The notes beneath the pieces are model-generated. The model was given only the letters and a program-made list of their open reading frames with translations, searched no databases and had not been told where the DNA came from. This document shows, one piece after another, positions 8,549 to 33,790 of a stretch of 64,000 nt of DNA. The number at the start of each line of letters is the position of its first letter. Position 1 is the first letter of the stretch. The stretch is taken from positions 2,177 to 66,176 of the forward strand of contig DMWY01000008.1 in NCBI GenBank assembly GCA_003483065.1. The letters run 5' to 3'. The position numbers and the translations under genes were made by a program. This DNA comes from Candidatus Moraniibacteriota bacterium (GTDB lineage: Bacteria; Patescibacteriota; Minisyncoccia; Moranbacterales; UBA2206).

Positions 8549-8689
8549 GACTTCCGCATTTCCCTTCGAATCTATTGTTCGCTGAAATTACTTTAAAATT
8601 CAATTAAGATTATAGATAGAAATTATTGTTTATAAATCCTGCCATTGCACTGGCTACATAAATAGATTCTCAGAAAAATGCGTAAGTCC
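8549..8689 (+). repeat. MITE-like intergenic element copy 1 (141 bp) immediately upstream of rpoD
   Basis: Termini GACTTCCGCATTT ... AAATGCGTAAGTCC are inverted repeats. Internal 9-bp inverted repeat GAATCTATT/AATAGATTC. About 88% identical to the copy at 33650-33790. Confidence 0.6.
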
Positions 8690-8708
8690 TAATTATATCT
8701 AAACATTT

Positions 8709-10046
8709 ATGGTCAAAGTTAAAAAAAATAAGAAAAAAATCTTGAAAAATAAAAAAACGCCGAAAAAAATCAAAGCTGTTCAAAAAAAGAGCAACAAAAA
8801 GATTGTTTCTAAGAAGAAAATTGTGCCTAAAAAGCCTAAAAATAAGGCTAAAATAGCGCCAAAAAAGAAGATTGAGAAAAAGAAACCAATCAAGAAAAAA
8901 GTCGTCAAGCAGATTTCCAAAAGAATGGAGGAAAAAAATTCTCAAAGACGCGGAGATATTGATGAACTGGTCTATCGTGGAAAGCAAAGAGGTTTCATCA
9001 CAGAGGATGAAATTTTGCATGTCATTCCGGATGCGGAAAAGGATATTGAAAAATTGGAAGAACTTTATGAAAAACTCGAAAAGAAAAATATTCGGGTGGT
9101 AAATTCTGATGAAATGATTCGCATGGAAACAGACAAGGTTTCTGAGGATTTTGACAAACAAAAAACTGGCAAGAAAAAAACCAGAAAAGAAACAATGGAC
9201 GTGGGTCCGGAAGAAGCTTCTTCCGATTTGGTTCAGATGTATTTACGAGAAATTGGTCGCGTGGATCTTCTCAGCACCGAAGAAGAAATAAACCTGGCGA
9301 AAAGAATTGAAAAAGGAGATACGATGGCCAAACAAAGACTCACCGAAGCTAATCTTCGACTTGTGGTGAGTATCGCCAAAAAATATGTGGGTCGCTCACA
9401 TAACCTTTCTCTTTTAGATTTGATTCAAGAAGGCAACATCGGACTTTTCCGCGCCGTGGAAAAATTTGACTATCGAAAAGGCTACAAATTTTCCACATAT
9501 GCTACTTGGTGGATTCGCCAAGCTGTGACACGCGCGCTAGCTGACCAATCAAGAACGATTCGTATTCCGGTGCATATGGTAGAAACGATTAATAAATATA
9601 CGCAAATTACCCGAAGACTCGTGCAAGATCTTGGACGCGAACCACTTCCAGAAGAAATTGCGGTGGAAATGGGAATTGAGGTGGACAAAATTCGCCACAT
9701 CCAAAAAATTTCCCAAGAAACAGTTTCTTTGGAAACTTCAGTGGGGGACTCAGATGACGACAGCGTGCTTGGAGATTTCATTGAGGATACTGAAACTGTG
9801 ATGCCAAATCAAATTGCTAGCCGAAAAATGCTCAAGGAACATGTGACGGAAATTTTGAAGGATCTCACTCCACGCGAACAAAAAATTCTGAAAATTCGTT
9901 TCGGTTTGGAAGACGGCGTGACGCATACCTTGGAAGAAGTGGGACAGGAATTTGGCGTCACTCGCGAACGAATTCGACAGATTGAAGCCAAGGCTTTGGA
10001 AAAAATTCGCGATCATAAAACTATCAAGAAACTTCGAGATTACTAA
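8709..10046 (+). CDS. rpoD: Primary RNA polymerase sigma factor (sigma-70/RpoD) with a lysine-rich N-terminal extension
   Basis: Region 1.2/2 [16 protein letters not shown] and [37 protein letters not shown]. Region 4 near the C-terminus. The first ~70 aa are about 50% Lys. Follows dnaG as in the macromolecular-synthesis operon. Confidence 0.95.
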
Positions 10047-10173
10047 AAATGATGCTAATCTACGAATACCTGCCTGCCGGCAGGCAGGAATGCTAATCTG
10101 CTAATTGCGAATAATACGAAGTTATCCACAGCCTTGGATTTGACAAAAAAAATAGATGTGCTAAATTAAATTC

Positions 10174-10272
10174 ATGAAAAACATGCAAACTAAAATATCA
10201 TTTATATTGTCTGTGATTATTTTGTTGGTCTTTGAGACCGGCCTTGGTTTGCGTGAAATGAAAAAAGCATAA
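10174..10272 (+). CDS. Small ORF (32 aa, hydrophobic single-helix peptide) inside a promoter-terminator sRNA-like module; may be non-coding
   Basis: TTGACA (10140-10145), 16-nt spacer, TAAATT. ORF MKNMQTKISFILSVIILLVFETGLGLREMKKA. Followed by a stem and T-run at 10300-10329. Paralogous module at 11038-11235. Confidence 0.3.
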   Translation: MKNMQTKISFILSVIILLVFETGLGLREMKKA

Positions 10273-10440
10273 GGAAGAAAATCATTTCAAATAAATCAAG
10301 ACCGATCTCTTCAAAAAGACCGGTTTTTTAGTTCTTTAAAACAAAGCTAGCAGTCAAAACAATGATTTTGCGGGAACTCGAAATTATTGATTTGACTGTT
10401 AGATGAATATTTAATTAATCTCAACGCAACGGAGGTATGC

Positions 10441-32175: not shown

Positions 32176-32496
32176 AAGTCTTGCCGCTTTCTTGTTCGGG
32201 CCGAAAATTTTCAAGCCCCTTCTTTCGAATTCATCGACGATCCCCATTGTCAACGGCTCCTCCGGGCCGACAATGGTCAGGTAGATCCCTTCTTTTTCAG
32301 CGAAATCCGCCAGCTTTTCAATTTCGTTGGCTTTGATGGGCACCAGCTCGGCGATACTGCCGATGCCGGCATTTCCTGGCGCGCAGTAGATTTTCCCCAC
32401 TCTCGGAGATTTTGCAAGTTTCCATGCCAGAGCATGCTCTCTTCCGCCACTGCCAATAAGTAGTACAGTTTTTTGATCCATGGCTACTCCCTTCAA
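32083..32496 (-). pseudogene. purD: purD N-terminal domain fragment; reading frame runs into IS sequence
   Basis: [17 protein letters not shown] PurD N-domain signature. After ...KKAARLEG the ORF continues through IS-derived sequence ([16 protein letters not shown]...). Confidence 0.8.
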
Positions 32497-32668
32497 TTGT
32501 TGACTTACGGTTTATAAAAAAGGGTCCATCTAACGACCCTAAGGTTTTTAAAGGAACAGATTCTCCTTATAAGTAAGGGTATAGGATAGACGCTAAAAGT
32601 CAAGCAATTTTCCCTAGCGGGAAGTTCTTTTTTCTGATATAATAATAGAAGGAAATAAAAACAAAAAA

Positions 32669-33643
32669 ATGGAATTTTGCAAAAACAAACTAAAATTAAA
32701 AATAGAGCTTATAAATGATTTTGATCTTAGAAAACAAGCGAAGGACTTGGGAGTCAAGATTTGGCAAACGCCCAGTTTTCTTTTTATAATTTTCGGAGTT
32801 GCAGCAACAATTATCATGGCTGCCACTTATTTTATTTCGAAAAATTATGAAAATCCGGCCGTCTTGGTAATTTCAGAATGCTTGGTCGTAGTTGTTATCT
32901 TTGTTTTGGAAATGTTAGTGACTAGATTTGTTGAGCAAATGACTAGACTCAACAGAATGAAAAGTGAATTTGTCTCCATTGCTTCACATCAACTCAGAAC
33001 TCCACTTTCTGCAATTAAATGGGAAACAGAATTGATGCTAAAAAAATTCAAGAAAGGCTTGAATAAAAAGCAGGTTAAAAATATAGAAAATATCTATGCG
33101 ATAAATCAACGAATGATTCATTTAGTAAATGATCTTTTAAATGTGGCAAGAATTGATCAAAATCGGTTAATTCTCAAAAAACAAAAATTTGATTTTGTTG
33201 AAATGGTCAAAGAAGTAGTTGCGGAAATTATTCCTAAGGCTAAGCCGAGAAACATCAAAATTGATATAAACGCAAAAAAAGAAGTGCCCTTTGTTTTGGG
33301 GGACGCTGAAAAGATAAGATTGGTTATGGATAATCTTTTGGATAATGCGGTTAAGTATACCAACAGTGGCGGGAAAATAAAGATAAGTATTTTTAAGTCA
33401 GGGAATTTTTTGATTTTTGAAATAAGGGATAATGGCGTGGGCATTCCCGAAGAACAAACGGGTCGTGTTTTTGAAAAATTTTTCCGCTCTGACAATGCTT
33501 CGAAATATCAAACAGATGGCACTGGTCTAGGACTATATATCGCCAAAAATATCGTGGAACAATTAGGGGGGGAAATTTGGTTTCAGTCCATTGAAAATGT
33601 TGGATCGGTTTTTAGTTTTTCTTTACCGATTAGCAGATTGTAA
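32669..33643 (+). CDS. Sensor histidine kinase (TM, HisKA, HATPase_c)
   Basis: H-box FVSIASHQLRTPLSAIKWETE. N-box LLDNAVKYT. G-boxes DNGVGIP and GTGLGLYIAKNIVE. Confidence 0.85.
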   Translation: MEFCKNKLKLKIELINDFDLRKQAKDLGVKIWQTPSFLFIIFGVAATIIMAATYFISKNYENPAVLVISECLVVVVIFVLEMLVTRFVEQMTRLNRMKSEFVSIASHQLRTPLSAIKWETELMLKKFKKGLNKKQVKNIENIYAINQRMIHLVNDLLNVARIDQNRLILKKQKFDFVEMVKEVVAEIIPKAKPRNIKIDINAKKEVPFVLGDAEKIRLVMDNLLDNAVKYTNSGGKIKISIFKSGNFLIFEIRDNGVGIPEEQTGRVFEKFFRSDNASKYQTDGTGLGLYIAKNIVEQLGGEIWFQSIENVGSVFSFSLPISRL

Positions 33644-33649
33644 ATGATA

Positions 33650-33790
33650 GAACTTCCCCATTTCCCTTCGAATCTATTGTTCACTGAAATTACAAAAAAA
33701 TAAAACTAAGATTATAGATAGAAAATATTGATTGTAATCCTGCTATTGTCCTGGCTACATAAATAGATTCTCATTGAAATGCGTAAGTTC
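33650..33790 (+). repeat. MITE-like element copy 3 (141 bp) immediately upstream of the response regulator at 33812
   Basis: GAACTTCCCCATTT ... AAATGCGTAAGTTC. Collinear with and near-identical to copy 1. Confidence 0.6.

Follow-up and report, generated by a model that had tools for sequence, protein, structure and literature searches.

Three intergenic elements of a Moranbacteria genome are very probably MITEs of the ISAba11 group

The window, a stretch of 64,000 nucleotides from the genome of a Candidatus Moraniibacteriota bacterium (contig DMWY01000008.1), contains three intergenic elements of 145-152 bp, including the terminal TA/TG, which have the termini TAGGACTTACGCATTT / AAAYGCGTAAGTCCTA in common. 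Judged from their sequences, they are very probably (roughly 0.93) non-autonomous DNA transposons, that is, MITEs (miniature inverted-repeat transposable elements), belonging to the ISAba11 group within the IS701 family. They are an ordinary kind of mobile DNA, and the MITE kind is already known. The original prediction had offered this reading beside several regulatory ones, and it is supported by dispersed copies, by target-site duplications, and by an empty pheA/tyrA junction in a relative.

The elements had been placed at 8549-8689, 12478-12626, and 33650-33790. The locations are right, but the true ends lie about 2 nt farther out on each side. The corrected ends are (T/C)A-GGACTTACGCATTT ... 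AAAYGCGTAAGTCC-T(A/G); a register test assigns the TA to the element itself and the duplication to the 5 nt beyond it. The features of the window are then as follows:

8547..8691, + strand: probable MITE copy 1, subfamily A, between dnaG (end 8536) and rpoD (start 8709); nhmmer E=2e-42
8547-8562: left end of copy 1, TATGACTTCCGCATTT
8676-8691: right end of copy 1, AAATGCGTAAGTCCTA
8542..8546: left target-site duplication of copy 1, ATTAT; register validated on 120 elements
8692..8696: right target-site duplication of copy 1, ATTAT; register validated on 120 elements
12476..12627, + strand: probable MITE copy 2, subfamily B, between the prephenate dehydratase gene (end 12452) and tyrA/chorismate mutase (start 12640); nhmmer E=5e-51; ends TAGGACTTACGCATTT and AAACGCGTAAATCCTG; flanking 5-mers ACTTA / AATTA, identical at four of five positions
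33648..33792, + strand: probable MITE copy 3, subfamily A, between the histidine kinase gene (end 33643) and the response-regulator gene (start 33812); nhmmer E=5e-41; left end degenerate, TAGAACTTCCCCATTT; right end AAATGCGTAAGTTCTA; no recognisable target-site duplication (flanks AATGA / ATAAT)

The flanking gene products (DnaG primase and sigma-70 RpoD; prephenate dehydratase and prephenate dehydrogenase plus chorismate mutase; histidine kinase and response regulator) agree with the predicted position directly upstream of rpoD, tyrA, and a response-regulator gene. Measured from the earlier ends, the distances to the start codons are 19, 13, and 21 nt, where 15-25 nt had been claimed, and those from the upstream gene ends are 12, 25, and 6 nt; the elements occupy tiny spacers.

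The shared inverted termini are confirmed, as all six terminal arms form three inverted pairs, 128-148 bp apart. Five 14-mer matches are found in the window at two mismatches or fewer, against a calculated chance expectation of about 0.4, and the sixth arm has three mismatches. The 16-nt terminal inverted repeats continue into imperfect arms of about 30-38 nt with 76-82% complementarity, and the 5' and 3' arms do form the long imperfect stem that was proposed, with folding z-scores from -2.6 to -6.5. Copies 1 and 3 are 86% identical (122/142), where about 88% had been claimed, and the internal inverted repeat GAATCTATT/AATAGATTC is found in both. That copy 2, which belongs to subfamily B and not to A, shares only the termini is nearly right; its interior is nevertheless 47.5% identical to that of copy 1, where shuffled sequences average 33% and do not exceed 46%, and by this measure the two are likely to be distantly related. 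No further copies were detected in the window with nhmmer and the subfamily profiles. Two additional end-like matches, at 15878 and 16930, have three mismatches each and are spaced like the two ends of a full-length element (1053 bp), but they lie inside copZ-like and copA genes and are ascribed to chance.

Evidence for transposition comes from a census of 120 non-redundant elements in public genomes and metagenomes. A perfect 5-bp target-site duplication is found immediately outside the TA...TA ends in 57 of the 120, and a further 19 match at four of five positions. When the register is shifted by 1-3 nt only 0-2 perfect repeats are seen, and the average for shuffled flank pairs is 1.7. In the window the duplication is perfect for copy 1 and holds at four of five positions for copy 2. 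The duplicated sites are 85% A+T, compared to a background of 59%. The elements have a median size of 144 bp (range 92-240 bp), lack coding capacity, and leave no room for a transposase ORF; none of 122 lies inside an ORF of at least 90 aa.

The family is also widely dispersed. A pattern of both termini matched 108 stretches in a collection of species-representative genomes, and a single 16-mer found more than 120 metagenome stretches among the matches listed, so many further copies do exist. The hosts comprise about 31 species genomes, 19 of which are labelled Patescibacteria, and one Cytophagales genome holds at least 17 near-identical copies. The same termini enclose at least 48 unrelated interior clusters, which share the ends alone. 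Longer and different conserved ends are seen in the matches from Anaerolineae, Chlamydiales, several Acidobacteriota, Brocadiia, and Dehalococcoidales, which were not counted as members of the family. Single matches from Bacillus, Clostridia, Mucilaginibacter, and Sphingobacteriales were also left out, being consistent with the roughly eight chance matches calculated. Nine solitary 16-mer matches in viral contigs, none of them with a partner end, were likewise taken as chance. A blastn search of a plasmid collection with a metagenome MITE gave no match, and a literature search with the terminal sequence returned unrelated primers only.

An empty site in a relative, which would be expected of an insertion, is found at the pheA/tyrA junction occupied by copy 2 in the window. 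In a related species (L058) the junction is about 1 nt wide and has no element; the spacer has diverged and there is no base-precise match, but the gene order is otherwise unchanged. A sister species (L086) has the same copy 1 at the orthologous site. The copy 3 spacer has one and the same length in all ten contigs consulted from the window's species, and no within-species insertion polymorphism was seen in the contigs listed (10 places in one look-up and three in another). Because the ends carry 1-3 mismatches and no such polymorphism is seen, the copies appear to be mostly inert relics by now. With respect to present-day mobility, every listed contig of the window's species carries the same insertions.

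The assignment to the ISAba11 group follows from larger elements with the same ends. Identical termini and 5-bp duplications bound insertion sequences of 1.04-1.25 kb that encode IS701-family transposases (NCBIfam NF049921), 331-342 aa long in the intact copies examined. Intact NF049921 transposases, the same ends, and 5-bp duplications are combined in four of these elements, L121, L255, L241, and L242, the last being ISAba11 itself. L121 encodes a 337-aa protein scoring 404.7 bits (cut-off 250) and is flanked by ATTAG, and L255 encodes one of 331 aa and is flanked by CATCG. The transposase genes of L118, L222, and L237 are frameshifted, and those of the low-GC full-length copies L118, L151, and L260 (the latter with the duplication AAATC) are broken. 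A stretch in L033 (1054-1795) was rejected as an insertion sequence; its end-like matches are 741 bp apart, and one of them lies within a 472-aa gene while the other looks like a solo end.

ISAba11 in pAC1530 starts with TAGGACTTACGCATTG, ends with GCGTAAGTCCTA, and is flanked by TATAG. The ends in the window begin with (T/C)AGGACTTACGCA, and so do those of ISAba11, ISPlag1, a Moraxella element, a second A. baumannii element, and a Nostoc element with the duplication ATAGT. The first 13-15 nt of the window's ends match those of ISAba11 and of five further elements encoding NF049921 proteins without a difference. The group with ISAba11-type ends is found in many phyla and also among archaea-labelled proteins; identity between its transposases falls to 28%, while the ends are unchanged. 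Transposases of the ISAba11 group reportedly carry an HHEK signature; the aligned positions read H-x2-H-x3-E-x6-K (HSSHWKIEQYHRVIK) in the ISAba11 protein and C-x2-R-x3-E-x6-K in that of L121. As the MITEs of the window encode no transposase, the signature has no bearing on them. Members are said to be flanked by a 5-bp repeat or by none, and to have inverted repeats that are strongly conserved within the group, which agrees with the elements described here. Other IS701 members in ISfinder make a 4-bp target duplication. A 5-bp repeat has been called characteristic of ISAba11 (PMC7885321).

No transposase of this family was found in the window, in the Moranbacteria loci examined, or in the 108 genome loci. 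Since none was found in the Moranbacteria DNA examined, it can only be inferred that a transposase of the NF049921 type mobilised the copies in this lineage. Each element would present two transposase-recognition ends of about 16 nt, TAGGACTTACGCATTT, as terminal inverted repeats that extend into imperfect arms of some 30 nt around roughly 110 nt of non-coding interior. Acting in trans, an NF049921-type DDE transposase would then bind both ends and excise the element. It would insert it at an AT-rich target by a staggered cut of 5 bp, the repair of which would leave the duplication. In these compact genomes the surviving insertions would be those in tiny intergenic spacers, which would leave the copies within a few bases of stop and start codons and in many cases inside operons. 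The long hairpin would be a by-product of the inverted ends.

A mobile origin could have been followed by selection. It is possible, but unlikely, that subfamilies A and B, being MITEs by origin, have been co-opted at places such as dnaG/rpoD, either as RNA hairpins within operons that influence processing, stability, or polarity, or because they carry an internal promoter. Orthologous copies are 100% (145/145) and 98.6% identical, while the third codon positions of the flanking genes are 72-86% identical. Such conservation above that of neighbouring synonymous sites could, taken alone, suggest selection on the element. However, the identical tracts also take in 30-52 nt of coding sequence on either side of the element, a pattern that short recombination tracts fit better than selection on the element. 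In a third orthologous pair (L058/L062) the excess is mild, with 88% for the element and 81% for the flanks.

Other traits of A and B also count for co-option. Within the subfamilies, variable segments alternate with invariant interior blocks. On the minus strand of subfamily A a TATAAT is perfectly conserved, but its -35 region falls in a variable segment, and promoter-like matches are no commoner than in shuffled sequence. The orientation of A and B relative to co-directional neighbours is 14 same to 4 opposite, but the ratio over all elements is 16:8, which is no significant bias (p=0.15). In 26 of 27 copies of A and B one of the two strands has the better fold, by about 9 kcal/mol. This was considered as evidence for an RNA, but the asymmetry is absent across 23 independent clusters (13:10, p=0.28) and is thus best regarded as an inherited subfamily feature. 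Finally, compensatory changes are seen at six stem pairs; these are, however, located in the inverted-repeat arms, where arm-to-arm conversion can yield the same changes, and a strand-specific structure is not general. A wider scenario is a little less probable again: MITEs with ISAba11-type ends might persist in Moranbacteria and other Patescibacteria without a resident transposase and spread between related species on homologous-recombination tracts of about 230-250 bp, their interiors being swappable at a fixed site, with A and B, at least, recruited as antisense promoters or as hairpins within operons, the dnaG-rpoD operon for instance.

A purely regulatory nature of the elements fares far worse. 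That they are a structured cis-regulatory RNA, leader- or riboswitch-like, which is kept before particular genes and is not mobile DNA, is very improbable. The predicted folding is indeed significant, and in the window the elements sit just upstream of start codons; this nearness is explained by the spacers of 1-25 nt in these compact genomes. Against such an RNA stand the 5-bp duplications, the presence of the same ends on transposase-encoding elements, an interior that is unconserved across the 48 clusters, and the lack of any Rfam match at E<=1. The neighbour genes are also unrelated from copy to copy. The gene contexts are co-directional for 63 elements, convergent for 13, and divergent for 11; the 13 convergent copies likewise speak against such an RNA. 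The convergent and divergent contexts also leave the proposed delivery of promoters or leaders unsupported, as do the non-significant orientation ratio and a number of promoter-like sites no higher than in shuffled sequence; intrinsic terminators were not found. In all, no support was found for a regulatory role.

It is hardly plausible, either, that these are MITEs of another family which duplicates 5 bp, for example Tn3-derived TIMEs, IS1380/ISEcp1-like elements, or IS3/IS21. The ISAba11 group is not alone in making a 5-bp duplication, and the end of the elements presumably bears a loose resemblance to that of ISEcp1/IS1380, but the latter was dropped as a parent in view of the IS701-type transposase in every full-length element found with these ends, and the identity of the first 13-15 nt to the ISAba11 group also speaks against another family. 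Least probable of all are paired operators, some 130 bp apart, for a common regulator of rpoD, tyrA, and the response regulator; a conserved inverted motif of 14-16 nt does precede the three genes, but it is the end of an insertion-sequence family, is flanked by duplications, occurs downstream of convergent genes and beside neighbours that differ from copy to copy, and is missing at one junction in a related species with otherwise unchanged gene order.

The MITEs of the window share the outer terminal sequence TAGGACTTACGCA(T), the 5-bp duplication, and the preference for AT-rich targets with ISAba11, ISPlag1, and their relatives. The latter are, however, 1.04-1.25 kb long and carry a transposase gene for 331-342 aa or so, while the window elements are 145-152 bp and non-coding; they are derivatives or hitch-hikers of the ISAba11 group and not self-mobile members. 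Correia elements (Neisseria), ERIC (enterobacteria), and RUP (pneumococcus) are similar palindromic repeats of about 100-150 bp in transcribed intergenic spacers with long hairpins, and some repeats of this type affect transcripts. Correia and RUP duplicate a TA and are related to other transposase families. These IS630-like repeats thus differ from the present elements, in which 5 bp are duplicated and the TA lies inside the element. MITEAba12, which duplicates 9 bp, is related to ISAba12 of the IS5 family. It is likewise a MITE from bacteria whose definition rests on the ends of an insertion sequence of Acinetobacter (PMC6382973), and these ends are other than those described here. The cyanobacterial MITE Nezha, about 130-170 bp long, reportedly shares its ends and direct repeats with ISNpu3, according to the summary of Zhou et al. 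(2008) in PMC3184786. Going by that description only, Nezha is the same kind of element, with a similar size range, intergenic position, stable predicted hairpin, and filled and empty sites between related species. Close relatives of the NF049921 transposases are located on plasmids of Nostoc and Polaromonas, the genera that the work on Nezha names. As described there, Nezha differs in being hosted by cyanobacteria, the present elements by Patescibacteria and other phyla.

For the biology of rpoD, tyrA, and the two-component system the consequences are probably small. The three puzzling "conserved leaders" would become correctly annotated mobile-element relics, and this would guard against proposing such relics as riboswitches or operators when genomes from the candidate phyla radiation are studied. 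No description of MITEs in Patescibacteria was found in the literature searched. A single insertion-sequence end of 13-16 nt (TAGGACTTACGCA...) marks a very widespread transposon group, and the ISAba11-type group has seeded dozens of unrelated MITE families, with Patescibacteria among the hosts. The same end may serve as a simple search key for annotating such elements.

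The original prediction of three intergenic elements in the window holds, although alignment places their true ends two bases outside those first proposed. In the alignment of the three copies, later of 120 relatives, the ends read (T/C)A-GGACTTACGCATTT ... AAAYGCGTAAGTCC-T(A/G). The positions rest on this alignment and the neighbouring genes on Pfam:

8547-8691: copy 1 (subfamily A), between the DnaG and RpoD genes; ATTAT on both flanks
12476-12627: copy 2 (subfamily B), between the prephenate dehydratase and prephenate dehydrogenase-chorismate mutase genes; flanks ACTTA and AATTA
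33648-33792: copy 3 (subfamily A), between the histidine kinase and response regulator genes; no flanking 5-bp repeat found

The 14-mer terminus has five matches in the window at two mismatches or fewer, and a sixth arm has three mismatches. All six arms pair off as three inverted pairs, and profile searches found no fourth copy in the window. The elements occupy their spacers almost wholly, the upstream stop lying 6-25 nt before and the downstream start 13-21 nt after the ends as originally predicted.

Further copies exist beyond the window. When both ends had to be present at a spacing of 95-125 nt, 108 stretches matched in a one-genome-per-species collection, and the 16-mer alone occurs in more than 120 metagenome stretches, a lower bound among the matches listed. 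With matches that have different, longer conserved ends left out, along with the roughly eight calculated to arise by chance, canonical elements are present in about 31 genomes. Nineteen of these are labelled Patescibacteria (Moranbacteria, Taylorbacteria, Kaiserbacteria, Saccharimonadales and others); other hosts include Poribacteria, Bdellovibrionales, Abditibacterium, one Acidobacteriota genome, and a Cytophagales genome with at least 17 near-identical copies. The interiors of 122 elements cluster into 48 unrelated groups with the ends alone in common, and two of these groups are found in the window, subfamily A (15 copies in the data) and subfamily B (12 copies).

Multi-copy elements of about 135-145 bp sharing only an inner ACTTMCSCATTT motif were seen in the WFSA01 loci of Anaerolineae (L004, L008, L013 and others; L-numbers denote loci from public genomes and metagenomes), in Chlamydiales CAWHVD01 (L001, L036, L053, L061, L082, L099) and in Acidobacteriota (L014, L028, L041, L067, L101, L102). 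These elements, whose conserved ends differ and have greater length (for instance GAGCCTTAAATAACTTACCCATTTAAC and CGTAAAGAAATAACTTCCGCATTTGGAC), are probably separate MITE families, which may be distantly related to that of the window elements. In the Anaerolineae genome they are frequently located at contig ends.

The Cytophagales copies carry a 5-bp direct repeat directly outside their TA...TA ends. At this register the repeat is perfect in 57 of 120 non-redundant elements and matches at four of five positions in 19, while 0-2 repeats are perfect when the register is moved by 1-3 nt, and shuffling of left and right flanks gives 1.7. Target-site duplications are present in the family; in the window only that of copy 1 is perfect. 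The duplicated sites are 85% A+T, against a background of 59%, and none of the elements lies inside an ORF. L058 comes from a species whose identity to the window over these genes is about 84-90%; there, the pheA-tyrA gap filled by copy 2 in the window is about 1 nt long and lacks the element.

Metagenome loci in which the ends pair at longer distances contain elements of 1.04-1.25 kb with the same terminal sequence on either side, among them L121; L255 holds a further intact copy:

L121, 11746-12995: full-length element with an intact 337-aa ORF; flanks ATTAG
L255, 2919-4002: full-length element, intact copy; flanks CATCG

The L121 ORF scores 404.7 bits (cut-off 250) against NF049921, the NCBIfam model for IS701-family transposases; the transposase genes of L118, L222 and L237 are frameshifted. 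The transposase family comprises 2789 proteins at E<=1e-20, with source names that include Synechococcus, Meiothermus, and Asgard and thaumarchaeal archaea, and the same ends are kept by transposases merely 28-29% identical. Plasmid homologues include ISPlag1 and elements of Moraxella, A. baumannii and Nostoc, all of which start with (T/C)AGGACTTACGCA; the Nostoc element is flanked by ATAGT. ISAba11, located in pAC1530 by published coordinates, starts with TAGGACTTACGCATTG, ends with GCGTAAGTCCTA and is flanked by TATAG, a 5-bp repeat being called characteristic of it (PMC7885321).

Given that transposase-bearing ISAba11-type elements have these ends and 5-bp flanks in common with them, the window elements are, as judged from sequence, MITEs of the ISAba11 group, a subset of the IS701 family. 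The main reading of the original prediction, a MITE, was thus right, and dispersed copies, duplications and transposase-bearing relatives all bear it out. ISAba11 and ISPlag1 are the closest named relatives, as parents. Among MITEs, the nearest counterpart is probably Nezha of cyanobacteria, for which ends in common with ISNpu3 have been reported (PMC3184786). In the literature searched, neither MITEs of Patescibacteria nor this terminal sequence were described.

Low-GC (33-36%) full-length copies occur in L118 (6869-7922), L151 (from about 1495) and L260 (9986-11030). Their proteins are about 90% identical to one another and the transposase gene is fragmented in all three, yet the 5-bp duplication of L260, AAATC, is perfect. 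These may be defective copies that are mobilised in trans; alternatively, the frameshifts may be tolerated or programmed.

Delivery of promoter or leader sequences by the MITE had also been proposed, and a regulatory RNA or paired operator sites had been offered as alternatives; all of these are unsupported. The gene contexts are mixed (63 co-directional, 13 convergent, 11 divergent). Subfamilies A and B share the orientation of co-directional neighbours in 14 cases and oppose it in four; over all elements with definable polarity the ratio is 16:8 (p=0.15). Promoter-like matches show no excess over shuffled sequence, no intrinsic terminators were found in the elements, and the sole notable promoter feature is a minus-strand TATAAT that subfamily A conserves perfectly. 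Rfam gave no family match at E<=1. The predicted pairing of the arms was recovered by consensus folding, with both-side changes in two pairs (A) and four pairs (B), all of which fall in the arms of the inverted repeat; conversion between the arms, or an origin from differing parent ends, can account for them. In 26 of the 27 A and B copies the fold is about 9 kcal/mol more stable on the strand antisense to the window's genes, but no consistently better-folding strand emerged over 23 independent clusters (13:10, p=0.28).

Other features were observed in the window:

10130-10335 and 11038-11235, + strand: two paralogous small units in unusually long gaps after rpoD
14771-14837: weak ohsC_RNA match (E=0.11, below threshold), just upstream of the next repeat
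14843-14963: inverted repeat AATTGTCATTCTGAGCGAAG / CTCCGCTCAGGATGACAATT between aminotransferase and csoR-like genes
15094-18963: copper-handling cluster with a CsoR/RicR-like repressor, a 452-aa protein with an N-terminal CopZ-like metal-binding domain, and a CopA-type P-type ATPase

Both small units contain a TTGACA-type promoter, a 31-codon ORF whose 3' end is covered by a long hairpin, and a terminator of GC stem and T-run. One ORF, MKNMQTKISFILSVIILLVFETGLGLREMKKA, is Ile/Leu/Val-rich; the other, MSKQPSQKFYSFSYFYFWFSQIGFVLHKMKA, is Phe/Tyr/Trp-rich and lies upstream of the pheA-tyrA-aminotransferase cluster. The units resemble leader-peptide attenuators; another reading is that their products are small hydrophobic toxin-like peptides. 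Window positions 10174-10309 are 96% identical to L062, with flanks at about 83%. The repeat at 14843-14963 resembles a widespread palindromic repeat, GTCATTCTGAGCGAAG, and related GTCATTCC motifs occur within some Taylorbacteria MITE interiors (L040, L066).

Over 8495-8740, a stretch made up of the element with 52 and 49 nt of flank, copy 1 and its L086 orthologue show no differences; at third codon positions, dnaG and rpoD of the two are 72-86% identical. L070 (5676-5901) and L108 differ by two mismatches across the element and 52 and 30 nt of flank, and in a third orthologous pair identity is merely mildly raised. The perfect or near-perfect tracts, about 230-250 bp in length with the orthologous MITE at the centre, reach 30-52 nt into coding sequence on each side, in genes with 72-86% identity at third codon positions. 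Because they take in flanking coding sequence, they are interpreted as short stretches of recombination that brought the filled allele from one species to another, and not as selection on the element; co-option of the elements is possible but unlikely. The dnaG-rpoD junction holds subfamily A in the window and L086, and subfamily B in L058 (6432-6583) and L062 (1618-1769). Both have the same position, orientation and unusual TATGACTT left end, which in other copies is typical of subfamily A; this points to an exchange of the interior at the site, through recombination or conversion between MITE copies, and away from separate insertion events.

The ends of the window copies have 1-3 mismatches to the consensus, except at two exact ends, the right one of copy 1 and the left one of copy 2. 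The same spacers are found in all contigs compared from the window's species, and no transposase was found in the Moranbacteria DNA examined (window and loci). The window copies are best seen as old insertions that are probably immobile.
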